Of a DNA stretch of 16,916 nt, positions 3,804 to 16,916 are shown in pieces. The stretch comes from a virus. The stretch's first letter is position 1; each line of letters opens with the position of its first letter. The DNA is taken from UHGV virus genome UHGV-0071988; one strand, written 5' to 3'. The translations under genes were made by a program, and so were the position numbers. The notes beneath the pieces are model-generated. The model made no database searches. It was not told the origin of the DNA and saw only the letters and a list, made by a program, of their open reading frames with translations.

Positions 3804-3879
3804 TGGTGGCCCCTACCGGATTTGAACCGATGACCGTGCGATTATGAGTCGCCTGCTCTAACCACTGAGCTAAGGGGCC
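3804..3879 (-). tRNA. tRNA with anticodon CAU, tRNA-Ile2 (lysidine-type)-like; 76 nt including encoded CCA
   Basis: Minus-strand sequence GGCCCCTTAGCTCAGTGGTTAGAGCAGGCGACTCATAATCGCACGGTCATCGGTTCAAATCCGGTAGGGGCCACCA folds as a cloverleaf (7-bp acceptor stem, D-arm GCTC/GAGC, anticodon loop CTCATAA, T-loop TTCAAAT). Acceptor stem and D-arm match E. coli ileX as recalled from memory; Met isotype not excluded. Confidence 0.85.
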
Positions 3880-12051: not shown

Positions 12052-12070
12052 TTAACGAACTCCAGTTAAA

Positions 12071-12114
12071 ACCACGATATGTGGTATTAAAACCACACAT
12101 CGTGAGTTTTTCAA
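12071..12114 (-). promoter_or_regulatory. PR-like promoter (-35 TTGAAA, 17-bp spacer, -10 TTTAAT) with operators O1 and O2
   Basis: Minus-strand -35 at 12109-12114 and -10 at 12086-12091. O2 (ACCACacatcGTGAG, 12092-12106) fills the spacer; O1 (ACCACgatatGTGGT, 12071-12085) covers the start region. Centres 21 bp apart. Confidence 0.5.
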
Positions 12115-12173
12115 TGGGCGAAACAAAAAATAACCTTCTATTTGTGGTCCACCTCTCGTCTTACCATGTGAAA

Positions 12174-12199
12174 ACCACTAAATGTGGTAATGTATAAAT
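12174..12199 (+). promoter_or_regulatory. Operator O3 (ACCACtaaatGTGGT) with putative extended -10 (TGtATAAAT) for the cI-like gene
   Basis: O3 at 12174-12188, followed by TG plus ATAAAT at 12191-12199, about 27 bp upstream of the CI start codon. Confidence 0.4.
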
Positions 12200-12225
12200 A
12201 ACCCACCATTCACGATTGATGAGAC

Positions 12226-12882
12226 ATGAAAAGCAACGACGAGAACATCAAGAAAGAAATAGGTCTGCGCATTCAGACTCTACGGAAACAATCCGGCATG
12301 ACTGCCGGAGATCTCCAGCAAGTCACTGGAATAGGCTTAAGCACCTTGCAGAACTATGAGGCCGGATTAAGACAACCATCTATACCTGCCATCAAGAAAA
12401 TCGCGCACGCCCTGAAAGCATCAGCGCCTTATATCGCGTGCTTAACAGATAACCCGTTCCCATCCCAGAATACTAACGCTCCTGTTATTCCTGGGCTTGT
12501 AGCTATAAAAAATGACATAGCATCGCACGCCGGAGAAAAGCCAGTGCTGGCGATAGAACAGGAGATTCTACGAAGCAAGAACATCAACCCATCGTCTCTG
12601 TTAGTTCTCCAGAGCAACGATGAGTTAATGTCACCAACAATATACCCTGGCTCCCAAGTCCTGATTAATACAGACGATACAGAGATTCATGAGGGGATCT
12701 ATGCCCTTGAAGACAGAAATGGCCTGGTTGTTTTGAGGCACTGTAGAGTCATACCGGGTGACAATGCTGTTATGCTGTCAACCGAAAGGGATGCTGAAAT
12801 GAACACTAAGCATCTGAATAACGAGGAATTTAAGCGTTATAAAGTTCTTGGCCGCGTAGTTAGTGTTGTCAACTGGTTATGA
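12226..12882 (+). CDS. CI-like phage repressor (N-terminal HTH_XRE, C-terminal S24 LexA-like peptidase domain)
   Basis: 218 aa. N-terminal IGLRIQTLRKQSGMTAGDLQQVTGIGLSTLQNYEAG is an XRE-type HTH. C-terminal half has LMSPTIYPGSQVLIN (candidate Ser nucleophile) and a later conserved Lys region, typical of autocleaving repressors. Divergent from the Cro-like gene across the operators. Confidence 0.85.
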   Translation: MKSNDENIKKEIGLRIQTLRKQSGMTAGDLQQVTGIGLSTLQNYEAGLRQPSIPAIKKIAHALKASAPYIACLTDNPFPSQNTNAPVIPGLVAIKNDIASHAGEKPVLAIEQEILRSKNINPSSLLVLQSNDELMSPTIYPGSQVLINTDDTEIHEGIYALEDRNGLVVLRHCRVIPGDNAVMLSTERDAEMNTKHLNNEEFKRYKVLGRVVSVVNWL

Positions 12883-12974: not shown

Positions 12975-13349
12975 ATGGAATTACATACAGCCAATAAAAA
13001 CGAAACTCTGATCACTGCTGGAATCGAAATCCAAGCGTTGAACATAGCGATTGAGTGTATGTTATGCCAAATCATTGATAATGAGAAAGATATCGACTGG
13101 ATAGAATCTATCCTTCATCTGGCATCAGAACAAAAAATCTGCCTCAAAACGGCCTTACAATACGATGTGCCAGCGGTATCGAAGCTGTGCCAGCCATTGA
13201 TGGCATATAACAGAGCTATTATTTCTGTATGCCTCATGATTCTCGATGAAAACACCCCTCTTAGCGACCGCTCAGAAGCTGCTCTAACCCTCTCACGTAA
13301 ACAGCGACAGCTAGCAAATCAACTGATATCAACGATAGCTGACCTCTGA
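12975..13349 (+). CDS. Hypothetical protein (124 aa), downstream of cI
   Basis: ORF with SD AAGAGG 7 nt upstream; AT-rich; predicted helical, no TM segment. Followed by hairpin 13364-13383. Confidence 0.6.
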   Translation: MELHTANKNETLITAGIEIQALNIAIECMLCQIIDNEKDIDWIESILHLASEQKICLKTALQYDVPAVSKLCQPLMAYNRAIISVCLMILDENTPLSDRSEAALTLSRKQRQLANQLISTIADL

Positions 13350-13363
13350 CTGCAAGCGGGCTA

Positions 13364-13383
13364 ACGCCCGCTTACATGATTAT
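13364..13383 (+). terminator. GC-rich hairpin AAGCGGGC-taac-GCCCGCTT (possible terminator of the cI operon)
   Basis: Perfect 8-bp stem 15 nt after the stop of the 124-aa gene; the downstream U-run is poor. Confidence 0.4.
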
Positions 13384-13385
13384 AG

Positions 13386-13475
13386 ATTTATATAATTATA
13401 TAAAACGCTTTTCATCCGTAAAAAAGTTGGTTATGCTTACCTCGTTCTATAAATATAGATTTATAGAATTATATA
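13386..13475. promoter_or_regulatory. parA upstream region with two AT-rich palindromic sites (E: 13386-13414; F: 13445-13468)
   Basis: Site E is gaTTATAGATTTATATAATTATATAAAA. Site F is a perfect 10-bp inverted repeat TTCTATAAAT-atag-ATTTATAGAA. Both lie within 110 bp upstream of the ParA start. Confidence 0.55.
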
Positions 13476-13499
13476 ATCAAACACATGGAGTCTCGACAA

Positions 13500-14153
13500 A
13501 TGACTATCTCTGTAGGTATTTTCAACGGAAAAGGCGGCGTAACCAAATCAACAATTGCCCGTGCTTTAGCAGTTGCTTATGCAAAGGCTGGCTGGAATGT
13601 ATGCCTGATCGATATGGATGTGCTTAACGGAACGGTAACGCGTTGGGTACAACGCAGAATGGCCAACAATATCGAACCAGCAATCGCGGCGCAGCCGTGC
13701 GGCACACCATCACAAGTCCAGAAAATCATCGAATCAGAAGTATACGACCTGGTTATCGTCGATGGCGGTGCCTACGCATCTGAATCAGTACCGAAGCTCT
13801 CTGAATTTCTGGATATGGTTATTTTGCCAACCAGATTCTCTACCGATGACCTGGAAACCACCGTTAACACAGCTCACGGCATCGTTAAAAAGGGTGTACC
13901 AATCAAGAAAATTTGCATGGTGTTTTCCGGCGCGGCTGAAAACGAAGCTGACTATATTGAAGCCCAAGAGTACCTGGCTAATACGCCATACTTTGTTGTC
14001 GATAAGTACATTCCCCACAAGCCAGCTCTGAGCAAAGCTCAGGATAAGGGCTTAAGCCTCATTGAGTGCTCATACGTTGCGCCACGCAAAAAGGCAGACG
14101 ACGTTATTCAGGGGATTATCAACCAGATTGAGGCTCTGACTACTGCCGCGTAA
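13500..14153 (+). CDS. ParA-family partition ATPase, small type Ib (ParF-like)
   Basis: 217 aa from the second ATG (SD GGAG 9 nt upstream). Deviant Walker A GKGGVTKST near the N-terminus; LIDMD and VIVDGG motifs. Followed by a small RHH-like gene. Confidence 0.85.
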   Translation: MTISVGIFNGKGGVTKSTIARALAVAYAKAGWNVCLIDMDVLNGTVTRWVQRRMANNIEPAIAAQPCGTPSQVQKIIESEVYDLVIVDGGAYASESVPKLSEFLDMVILPTRFSTDDLETTVNTAHGIVKKGVPIKKICMVFSGAAENEADYIEAQEYLANTPYFVVDKYIPHKPALSKAQDKGLSLIECSYVAPRKKADDVIQGIINQIEALTTAA

Positions 14154-14667: not shown

Positions 14668-14689
14668 AAAAAAGGCCCCCGAAGGGGCC
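14668..14689 (-). terminator. Intrinsic terminator, minus-strand oriented (GGCCCC-cgaa-GGGGCC plus U-run)
   Basis: Hairpin at 14674-14689 with A6 on the plus strand at 14668-14673, giving a U-run after the stem for a minus-strand transcript. No U-run in the plus direction. Confidence 0.55.
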
Positions 14690-15204
14690 TAATCGCTACT
14701 TGCTGCTAATGTTTATCGTCACATTCAGAGCGTTATCAGTAATCTTCCAACCCTCTCCATGTGGCGTAAACAAAGCTCCAGTAACAACGATCAAAATACA
14801 TACGTATTTCCTCATTGTATTGGCCCTCGCAGGCCGTTTCACGGCATCTCCACCGACGAAAATGACGCGAGAGCAAGCACACCGCTTGTGCTTGCGTGTA
14901 CGGCAAGTGGATGATCCTTTCCTTAAAGTCGGTGCCCGGGTGCGAATCGGCGAAAAGGCCCCAAGCCATATTACACGTCCTCGCCTTCATAATGAAGGAA
15001 TAACAAATGCTTTTATTACATGTAATTACATCCGAAGAAGTTAAAAAACTTCATTCTGCATGAACTAAGGAACTAAATTTCTTTATATGAATAGTGGACT
15101 ATTCACCTCAGTTGAGTAAGAATAGATACGCCGCTTGTGCTTGCGTGGTTGTTTATACAACGACGTTATGCTGAAAGGACCGCGAATCCGATCAGCACGA
15201 AAGA

Positions 15205-15231
15205 ACCGTCCTCAAAAGGACGGTTTTTTTG
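15205..15231 (+). terminator. Intrinsic terminator, plus-strand oriented (ACCGTCC-tcaaaa-GGACGGT plus T7)
   Basis: Stem 15205-15211 / 15218-15224 followed by TTTTTTT (15224-15230). The stop codon of the minus-strand regulator gene (15212-15214) lies in its loop. Confidence 0.6.
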
Positions 15232-15784
15232 TTTCTTCACTCATTAAAAACCGTCCAAGACCTGTTGATGACTCCAGATAATCTCGATTATCCATATCAG
15301 CACCGTTATCGACCCAATGTCTATATGCTTCATTGCAACAATACATTACAGCAGTTGGAGTAACAGGGAAGCCGCCCCCAAATGAGAATCCCATTGAGCT
15401 AATGCTAATTCTTTCGAATGGCCTATTTCTCAATGCTTCAAACCCCTTACTGTTGAAGTAACTCAGCATCAGAGGCAAAAGGTTATCCTCGTCCTGATCG
15501 ATTGTTCCCGGGAAAAAGTAGTAACCACAGCGATTAAATTCGGGAATCAGTTTTTCTACCAACAACATGAAATTCATTGGGCTAATATTAAGGGCAGAGC
15601 AAGCACCAAAAAGAGCATCAACCGTTAATACAGACTGCCCGTTCTCTATCTTTGTCCATGCGTTTGGTGTTTTTCCGGCAGCTTGAGCCAGTACTCCTTG
15701 ATGCACACCTCTTTCAAGCCTAAGTTCTTTTATGATCATTAGGTGAATTGTTGAAAAACATGAATTTTTTGATGTTTCAGTCAT
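15212..15784 (-). CDS. XRE-family HTH transcriptional regulator with uncharacterised C-terminal domain (190 aa), AT-rich
   Basis: Strong SD GAGGAGG 6 nt upstream. N-terminal IIKELRLERGVHQGVLAQAAGKTPNAWTKIENGQSVLTVDALFGACSALNISP is a Cro/C1-type HTH. Divergent from the antirepressor-like operon. Confidence 0.7.
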   Translation of the reverse strand: MTETSKNSCFSTIHLMIIKELRLERGVHQGVLAQAAGKTPNAWTKIENGQSVLTVDALFGACSALNISPMNFMLLVEKLIPEFNRCGYYFFPGTIDQDEDNLLPLMLSYFNSKGFEALRNRPFERISISSMGFSFGGGFPVTPTAVMYCCNEAYRHWVDNGADMDNRDYLESSTGLGRFLMSEETKKPSF

Positions 15785-15854
15785 TTTTTACCTCCTCTGC
15801 ATTAAATTCACTACCAATTTCCAATCTCAAAAGAAACCACAATCAATACCATCT

Positions 15855-15981
15855 AGTTCCCTACATTCACAGCATACCCAAAAAACTGGATATGAAGCAA
15901 ATTTTTTCGCAAATAAATCACAACAAGTTCCTTATACTCATATATAAGTTCCCTACATTCATATAATGTTCCCAACAATCC
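15855..15981. repeat. Four direct repeats (consensus AGTTCCCTACATTCA), three of them phased at 20-21 bp
   Basis: Identical 15-mers at 15855-15869 and 15947-15961; variants at 15926-15940 (12/15) and 15967-15981 (about 10/15). Located between the XRE regulator gene and the rightward operon. Confidence 0.6.
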
Positions 15982-16358
15982 AGTGTCAAACAAATTTGAT
16001 TGGTCAAATCATGCGCTTAATGAGCAGAAAATTCCGTTTTTCAAACCCACGCTATGTGGTTGTCTCTGTTAAAATCTCGCCGTATTGACATGAATGCGCC
16101 ATTGGTGGACACTTTCCGAGCCGTAGCAAAATCTACGGCCGGGATTGGAACCCCGTAGACACAATGGCGCATACCGCGTTAGCGGTTTTTTTATGCGTAA
16201 AGCACTGCTACACCCAAATTATGGTGGGGCGTGCGGGGGAGTCGTAAGACTCGCCGGTTCGTCATTGTGTCCGGTAGTTCCAACCCTGCACGTCTCACCA
16301 CCCAATGATTGGAACCTGACGGTGGTGAGTATCCTTAACCTTTAAGGGAATCATCACA

Positions 16359-16550
16359 ATGACAAACCTACCCCATGACTATTACGTCAACCTCGTAAAG
16401 ATCCTTCTCAAGAAAGCCTCATACGCCGATAAATTCCGCCTGGCTGAAATAATCGAGCGCGAAGCTATGCGCATCGCCAGCAACGATAACGCTGTTTCTG
16501 ACGCAAAAATCTCCCTCGTAACCAAAGTAGTTATGGGAGGTGCAAAATGA
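16359..16550 (+). CDS. Hypothetical small protein (63 aa)
   Basis: ORF with SD AAGGGAA; stop overlaps the start of the next gene (ATGA). Confidence 0.5.
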   Translation: MTNLPHDYYVNLVKILLKKASYADKFRLAEIIEREAMRIASNDNAVSDAKISLVTKVVMGGAK

Positions 16551-16864
16551 AAACGCTTCCGACCGTTAACACCCTACAGCCTATCCTGCATAACCAAATC
16601 CCTGTCATTACTACCGAGTTACTGGCACAGCTTTACGGCGTATCTCCTGTACGCATTCGACAAAATCATCATGAGAATAAGGAACGCTTCATTGAAGGTA
16701 AGCACTACTTCAAAATTGAAGGTAACGAACTTCGAGAGTTAAAGCACAAAGTGACTCAAGATAATGATGTGAAGAACAAAAACTCTTTAAGAGATTCAGT
16801 TAATGACGCCCCCTCTAAAAGAGAGAGCGTCGAGCACAGAGTAGTTTTAAACTACTCTGTTTGA
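16547..16864 (+). CDS. ORF6N/KilA-N-like domain protein (antirepressor-like N-terminal domain, 105 aa)
   Basis: SD GGGAGG 6 nt upstream. Segment ITTELLAQLYGVSPVRIRQNHHENKERFIEGKHYFKIEGNELRELK matches my recollection of the ORF6N/Bro-N-type domain found at the N-terminus of phage antirepressors. Confidence 0.55.
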   Translation: MKTLPTVNTLQPILHNQIPVITTELLAQLYGVSPVRIRQNHHENKERFIEGKHYFKIEGNELRELKHKVTQDNDVKNKNSLRDSVNDAPSKRESVEHRVVLNYSV

Positions 16865-16916
16865 AGTGGCACACTGAATTTGGCCACCTGAACAGAGGTG
16901 ATATGCTCACCTCAGA

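Follow-up and report, generated by a model that had tools for sequence, protein, structure and literature searches.

Putative operator repeats of an optional XRE-family regulator in an Escherichia coli/Yersinia phage-plasmid family

ClgR and the controller proteins of R-M systems bind paired, adjacent operators over their own promoters, and the controller-type proteins can activate as well as repress. Directly repeated operator half-sites are also known from phage P2, where they flank the Pe promoter and are the sites of the C repressor. The immI region of phage P1 has a c4 RNA-icd-ant architecture, and its antirepressor operon is controlled by C1. For the Gifsy-1 isrK-orf45-anrP operon, the architecture has been described and the ATGA coupling shown experimentally (PMC4825925). 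Small transcription factors (TFs) similar to C proteins have been described on plasmid-like phages as activators of small antirepressor genes that lie near par and diverge from the TF gene (Silpe et al., 2023; PMC10432266).

The locus described here shares features with all of these systems. The window, i.e., the whole stretch of DNA that was analyzed, consists of 16,916 nt from the UHGV virus genome UHGV-0071988 and contains four short repeats between the gene for an XRE-family regulator and a divergent antirepressor operon (Table 1). Judged from comparisons with related elements and with distant homologues of the regulator, the repeats are probably operators through which this accessory HTH regulator represses its own promoter.

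Table 1. Features of the regulator locus and of the neighbouring operon (positions in the window; a dot marks features without strand).
Feature	Position	Strand	Description
CI-like HTH-S24 primary repressor	12226-12882		Own operators, unlike the repeats
Likely bidirectional terminator	15197..15232	.	Inverted repeat, hairpin then T-run; left edge of the module; sequence kept in class C
XRE-family regulator	15212..15784	-	190 aa; HTH at residues 18-69 and conserved C-terminal extension
Optional accessory module	15237..16042	.	806-bp segment with regulator, promoter and operators; missing in most relatives
O1	15855..15869	-	Promoter-proximal copy; + strand AGTTCCCTACATTCA, gene direction TGAATGTAGGGAACT; exact copy
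Proximal candidate promoter	15871..15900	-	Predicted, weak; TTGCTT 15900-15895, 18-nt spacer, TATGCT 15876-15871
O2	15926..15940	-	+ strand AGTTCCTTATACTCA; GGAAC at ~+23 of the distal candidate promoter
O3	15947..15961	-	+ strand AGTTCCCTACATTCA; GGAAC at ~+2 of the distal candidate promoter
Distal candidate sigma-70 promoter	15961..15989	-	Predicted (PWM scan); -35 TTGACA 15989-15984, 17-nt spacer, -10 TTATAT 15966-15961
O4	15967..15981	-	+ strand TGTTCCCAACAATCC; degenerate, 4 mismatches; GGAAC at ~-18 of the distal candidate promoter
CI-type operator-like palindrome	16043..16061	.	AAACCCACGCTATGTGGTT; outside the module; kept in all classes
isrK operon promoter	16085..16113	+	Predicted; TTGACA, 17-nt spacer, GACACT; best + strand PWM match
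IsrK-like leader sRNA with terminator	16120-16192	+	Rfam RF01394, 70.0 bits, above gathering score
C4 antisense RNA	16217-16305	+	Rfam RF01695, 77.8 bits, above gathering score
Small ORF	16359-16550	+	63 aa; ATGA overlap with the antirepressor gene
ORF6N antirepressor gene	16547-16864	+	Shortened here

The regulator and the neighbouring operon

The N-terminal part of the regulator has the five-helix HTH fold of XRE / Cro-CI regulators, and the HTH_3 profile (PF01381) matches residues 18-69 with 30.2 bits (Pfam gathering cutoff 23). According to a fold search, this HTH is closest to ClgR and to the R-M controller proteins C.Esp1396I, C.BclI, and C.AhdI. The C-terminal ~100 residues gave no match in Pfam, PHROGs, NCBIfam, or PADLOC, where the HTH alone was matched, and the same was seen in fold searches against solved structures. 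In a full structure model the extension is predicted with confidence and packs against the HTH. The pLDDT drops below 50 for residues ~170-190, and the homologues stop near residue 165-175. The last ~8 codons of the open reading frame (15212-15236) extend into a conserved flanking terminator outside the 806-bp insert described below, and this tail looks like a read-through made by the insertion junction.

The regulator gene is divergent from the antirepressor operon, which begins at ~16120. The predicted operon promoter is found directly 5' of the Rfam isrK start at 16120, and the isrK leader is followed by the C4 RNA, a 63-aa ORF and the ORF6N gene, so that the term "antirepressor-like operon" used in the first-pass annotation was correct. 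The antirepressor gene of the window has only 105 codons, as opposed to the 380-aa ORF6N proteins found in relatives, including E. coli ATCC 25922. The last ~50 bases of the window (about 16866-16916) match thousands of E. coli sites and represent the end of an IS911-family (IS3-like) element, and the antirepressor has therefore been insertionally truncated in the window element.

About 25 bp upstream of the -35 hexamer of the operon, right where the XRE insert stops, there is a palindrome that matches the AAAACCAC-N5-GTGGT palindromes at 12068-12086 and 12171-12189 in the CI/Cro-type divergent region beside the gene of the CI-like repressor. Half-like copies of this palindrome are also found in the region 12052-12225. 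The shared palindrome suggests that the primary CI-like repressor may control the antirepressor operon.

An optional module in a phage-plasmid family

The window is part of a ~48-kb circular E. coli/Yersinia phage-plasmid family. Its members include the E. coli ATCC 25922 plasmid NZ_CP009073, many plasmids of E. coli, E. albertii, and E. fergusonii, and the Yersinia phages vB_YpM_39, 41 and 44. Besides myovirus tail genes, these elements have genes for ParA and RepA and for a CI-like repressor of the HTH-S24 type. Yersinia phage HQ103 was also considered as a relative and was rejected, as it is an unrelated 32-kb phage. RNA genes found elsewhere in the window are a tRNA gene (3807-3879, minus strand, 67 bits; tRNA-Ile in the ATCC 25922 annotation) among lysis and methyltransferase genes, and ryfA (14668-14963, minus strand; full-length Rfam match, 132.9 bits) between the par region and the XRE module. 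The latter is kept in relatives that have no module. Loci of the ryfA type code for a small toxic peptide and an sRNA as its partner, and this copy may be a plasmid-maintenance element.

Sequence comparison sorted the relatives into three classes. Class A, the ATCC 25922 lineage, aligns over the entire region with about 94% identity. In class B the regulator gene is found with about 88-91% DNA identity, and positions 15790-16040 are exchanged for an unrelated segment that is ~125 bp shorter. In class C, which makes up the majority, 15236 is joined to 16043 via a 10-bp filler and both the gene and the repeats are missing. Class C consists of complete circular plasmids, 47.5-48.5 kb in size, with the same ParA and the same isrK promoter. 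The module could be identified in 20 of the 84 E. coli records that match the 15100-16400 query, all 20 of them plasmids; the other 64 include some chromosomal flank matches outside the plasmid family. As classes A and B have the same insert boundaries, the adjacency of regulator and operon goes back to a single insertion event.

The first-pass annotation had proposed that the regulator and its intergenic region were acquired as a module, and the presence/absence polymorphism of 806 bp (15237-16042) supports this. The AT-richness that had pointed in this direction is clear for the intergenic DNA (35% GC) and modest for the gene (40.7%), relative to 46.7% for the window. The same annotation had suggested an immI-like second immunity region. 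This description fits the neighbouring operon, where Rfam C4 and isrK precede the ORF6N gene, but it does not extend to the XRE regulator as an integral part. The regulator and the repeats were rejected as a constant immI component because the operon keeps its promoter and CI-type operator in relatives without the module. Judged from this distribution, the module is needed neither by the antirepressor operon nor for plasmid replication.

The E. coli plasmid pE200086_49 has two copies of the isrK-orf63-ant region (locus L047, 1860-2165). The second copy follows the right end of a class A module, with a recombination junction at ~O4 and no XRE gene. This plasmid was considered as a module carrier and rejected, as only the right end of the module was matched and the segment is a rearranged duplicate of the antirepressor region.

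The repeat array and its motif upstream of homologues

The repeats are located where the first-pass annotation had placed them, in four copies of which two are identical (O1 and O3, the same 15-mer) and three are 20-21 bp apart. The start-to-start spacing from O1 to O4 is 71, 21, and 20 bp, and the three closely spaced copies, being two helical turns apart, lie on one face of the DNA. Tandem Repeats Finder reports the same region as a 21-bp-period array of 2.6 copies (15925-15977). When the 15-mer was searched with ≤3 mismatches, four matches were found in the 16.9-kb window, three of them in the array, compared to a shuffle expectation of 0.47 for the whole window (0 of 200 shuffles reached four). 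With a PWM made from the repeats, no strong site was found beyond them, either in the window or across the 48.5 kb of the ATCC 25922 plasmid. A search for structured RNA in 15750-16130 gave no Rfam match up to E = 1.

In ATCC 25922 (93-94% identical) all four copies are kept with unchanged spacing (71, 21, 20). The AGTTCC and TCA positions are the same in both elements, substitutions pile up between the cores, and O1 shows no change at all. The 58 bp from O4 to the right edge of the module (15985-16042) are 100% identical between the window and ATCC 25922, next to the diverged repeat zone, and hold an imperfect palindrome of the TCAAACAAATTTGA type. A divergent small ORF (15966-16088, 40 aa) was discarded, as its frame ends after 11 codons in ATCC 25922 owing to a 1-bp difference.

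Two candidate promoters of the regulator were found in the window. The GGAAC cores are located at -18, +2, and +23 of the distal candidate (TTGACA-17-TTATAT), with O4 occupying the 17-nt spacer that separates its -35 and -10 hexamers. O1 is found directly 3' of the weak proximal candidate (TTGCTT-18-TATGCT), which reads TTGCTT-18-TATGAT in ATCC 25922. This proximal candidate lies 86 nt from the ATG, which agrees with the 83 nt found for the strong promoter of class B. The PWM scores are 9.4 and 7.7 for the regulator promoters of the window versus about 14-15 in class B, and a stricter promoter scan of 15100-16400 found no promoter. Half-sites at -18/-8 and +2/+12 of the best predicted sigma-70 promoter are seen in class B and in several unrelated lineages. 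A putative overlap between the sites and the gene's own promoter in the -18/+2 register recurs in many lineages, with promoters that are all predicted and that are weak in the window. For the window element, where the promoters are candidates, this overlap of operator and promoter is the least secure step.

The regulator belongs to a small protein family (108 representatives at E ≤ 1e-10 among 1.84 billion), and the homologues match over the full length, C-terminal extension included. Loci of homologues whose proteins are 43-57% identical to that of the window were collected from Vibrio, Photobacterium, Deefgea, Pandoraea, Advenella, and metagenomes. The GGAAC core, read in the direction of the gene, recurs 5' of homologues in Vibrio, Deefgea, Pandoraea, Advenella, and the metagenomes. 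In the distant homologues it is usually part of a GGAAN-N5-NTTCC palindrome that overlaps the -10/+1 region of a predicted promoter. GGAA-N7-TTCC with at least 7 of 8 matches was found ≤200 nt upstream of the gene in 11 of the 18 loci; with random 200-nt windows from the same loci the mean was 1.8 loci and the maximum 8 in 2000 trials. The palindrome density is 4.2 per kb upstream of the genes and 0.36 per kb elsewhere in the loci (about 12 times lower). The other seven distant loci have no palindrome at this threshold, and some of them have direct GGAAC repeats and some have uncertain start codons. From this enrichment upstream of the homologues, the regulator may bind short repeated operators in a sequence-specific manner.

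The phasing of the sites also recurs. Where a locus has two sites, the distance between them is exactly 20 bp (three loci) or 40 bp (one locus). In an Advenella sp. MAG (L039, 3737-3865), 6.4 perfect tandem 20-bp units (TATCTTTTCAGGAACATGCA), each with a GGAAC, are found 5' of a homologue with 51% identity that adjoins an IS66 element. This is an extreme form of the phased direct repeats in the window. Another locus (L044) has two GGAAC cores 20 bp apart, and direct two-turn-phased arrays thus recur in the regulator family. The class B protein is identical to that of the window across the predicted recognition-helix region, and the non-homologous DNA upstream of its gene carries GGAAT-N5-GTTCC-N5-GGAAT over a strong TTGATA-17-TATAGT promoter, with an additional GGGAAC closer to the gene. 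IMG/VR was searched for double palindromes; the strict pattern gave no matches, and the single match to a relaxed pattern, on a GC-rich contig with no related gene, was judged to be due to chance.

As would be expected of an autoregulatory array, motif and regulator gene are found together in lineages that are far apart. Of the relatives, in which the first-pass annotation had named a search for homologous repeat arrays as a check, ATCC 25922 has the array, class B has the core in non-homologous DNA, and class C lacks the module; the core is also found with distant homologues. Its proposal that the repeats are operators of the XRE regulator is very probably right, given that the GGAAC/GTTCC core recurs 5' of distant homologues.

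The GGAAC half-site would then belong to a family-wide palindromic operator, GGAAN-N5-NTTCC. Each 15-mer in the window retains one strong half-site, i.e., GGAAC read towards the gene, and the second half-site of the family palindrome is missing from all four copies, so that binding may be weaker or may require cooperativity. Regulator dimers might sit side by side on O4, O3, and O2, on one helix face and probably cooperatively. These three sites would span the spacer, the -10 hexamer, the start site, and the early transcribed region of the distal predicted promoter, with O1 directly 3' of the second, weaker promoter closer to the gene. Bound dimers would block RNA polymerase and keep the regulator at a low steady level, i.e., negative autoregulation. 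Gene, promoter, and operators would thus form a self-contained 806-bp insert between a terminator and a presumably CI-controlled antirepressor promoter. We infer from the sequence that the regulator binds the repeats, that it does so cooperatively, that it represses, and where its promoters are; as R-M controller-type proteins can also activate, repression is the probable sign rather than a given one.

The position of the array also allows a reading in which the XRE protein is a sensor or activator of a TF-antirepressor lysis module, and the bound repeats switch on or de-silence isrK-C4-orf63-ant. The regulator gene is divergent from the antirepressor operon and near parA, and its conserved C-terminal extension could be the signal-sensing part. 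The small TFs of plasmid-like phages that resemble C proteins and ClgR activate divergent antirepressors near par (PMC10432266), and the HTH of the window has the same closest structures, ClgR, C.Esp1396I, C.BclI, and C.AhdI. If this were true, it would represent an SOS-independent induction route. We nevertheless find it unlikely. A gap of 103 bp, in which the CI-type operator is found, separates the nearest repeat from the -35 hexamer of the isrK promoter, which is further downstream, and in class B it is about 86 bp from the start of the nearest half-site to this hexamer; the half-sites instead map onto the predicted promoter of the regulator itself. In addition, the operon is found with an identical promoter in the majority of relatives, where the XRE gene is missing, the common insert boundaries of classes A and B reduce the adjacency to one insertion event, and homologues elsewhere do not adjoin antirepressor operons.

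Non-functional remnants of a local duplication in a fast-evolving AT-rich spacer, with only some or none of the copies bound, would explain why O1 and O3 are identical, why all four copies lack the second half of the palindrome and why the promoter predictions are weak in the window element. Yet the substitutions that distinguish the window from ATCC 25922 spare AGTTCC and TCA and leave the spacing exact, the register of GGAAC to the promoter is the same as in independent lineages, and direct 20-bp GGAAC arrays are also found 5' of the Advenella and L044 homologues, which makes this origin quite improbable. It is hardly conceivable that the repeats are iterons of a replication origin, as the first-pass annotation had offered as its other option, or parS-like centromere repeats for the nearby ParA (gene at 13485-14153). 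Complete circular family plasmids of 47.5-48.5 kb keep the same ParA without the segment, and the motif also accompanies the XRE gene in chromosomal prophages and in unrelated surroundings, although phased direct repeats in AT-rich DNA of a plasmid-type element would suit such a role. As the class C plasmids show, the repeats are not required for replication. Nor do they adjoin an initiator gene: RepA is about 5.7 kb away in ATCC 25922 (repA 13069-14049, repeats 19555-19681), and no Rep gene adjoins them in the window.

Possible role and comparison with known systems

Autorepression through the four repeats, the reading we prefer, concerns how the regulator gene is controlled; what the protein does beyond this may be reflected in where its homologues are found. 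As a rule, they are found singly at accessory sites of mobile elements. In Vibrio P2-like prophages they occupy either the interval from ogr to the portal gene or the prophage end, next to the integrase, and some stand alone with long non-coding flanks (L040 3513-5042, a Vibrio P2-like prophage; L011/L012 4390-5705). Homologues also occur in the lambdoid nin region, on plasmids and, in one case, adjoining a TIR-domain gene. Of these positions, the two in P2-like phages usually house accessory, often defence, genes. The accessory placement suggests a moron-type function, e.g., exclusion, anti-defence, or sensing.

A two-part protein may also be envisaged, in which the HTH serves self-control only and the C-terminal half is the cargo, either an anti-defence or exclusion effector or a lysis-lysogeny sensor. 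AcrIIA1 is an HTH autorepressor fused to an anti-Cas9 domain. We put this forward tentatively, as a possibility with a rather small chance of being right; if true, it would explain a solitary self-regulated gene in the moron positions of P2-like and lambdoid phages, phage-plasmids, and plasmids.

The comparisons provide a concrete putative operator for an uncharacterised phage/plasmid regulator family, i.e., GGAAN-N5-NTTCC with 20-bp phasing, present here as direct GGAAC repeats. Three layers of control, which had run together when the sequence alone was read, can also be told apart at this locus: the primary CI-type repressor (operators ACCAC-N5-GTGGT), an RNA-controlled antirepressor operon, and an optional inserted regulator. 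For a common E. coli phage-plasmid family, the ATCC 25922 plasmid included, the core and accessory parts of the region can now be marked in the annotation. The mechanism itself would be a textbook one, in which an HTH repressor controls its own gene through phased operators, here in a family that is uncharacterised and borne by mobile elements.

Like the TF-smORF modules of Silpe et al., the locus has an XRE/C-protein-like TF on a phage-plasmid, near par and divergent from an antirepressor gene. Here, however, the TF sites are located on the predicted promoter of the TF itself, >100 bp from the antirepressor promoter, the operon is under its own RNA-based and CI-type control, and the linkage between TF and antirepressor is not conserved among homologues. 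The neighbouring operon resembles P1 immI and Gifsy-1 in having an IsrK-like leader with a terminator, a C4 RNA, and a small ORF with ATGA overlap to the antirepressor. In contrast to both, the antirepressor of the window is cut by the IS911-family element, and the XRE regulator and its repeats belong to neither known system.

The resemblance to ClgR and the C proteins C.Esp1396I, C.BclI, and C.AhdI is confined to the fold and to the logic of the operators. Neither in the window nor in relatives is the regulator gene flanked by R-M genes, the members of the regulator family are 165-190 aa long with a conserved ~100-residue C-terminal extension that is absent from C proteins, and the palindromes are reduced to direct half-site repeats in the window. 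The P2 C repressor differs in being the primary immunity repressor, a role that in the window belongs to the separate CI-like HTH-S24 protein with its different operators. Yet it is also a temperate-phage repressor whose sites over a promoter are direct repeats, not inverted ones, with a spacing of about two helical turns, and homologues of the window regulator do occur in P2-like prophages.
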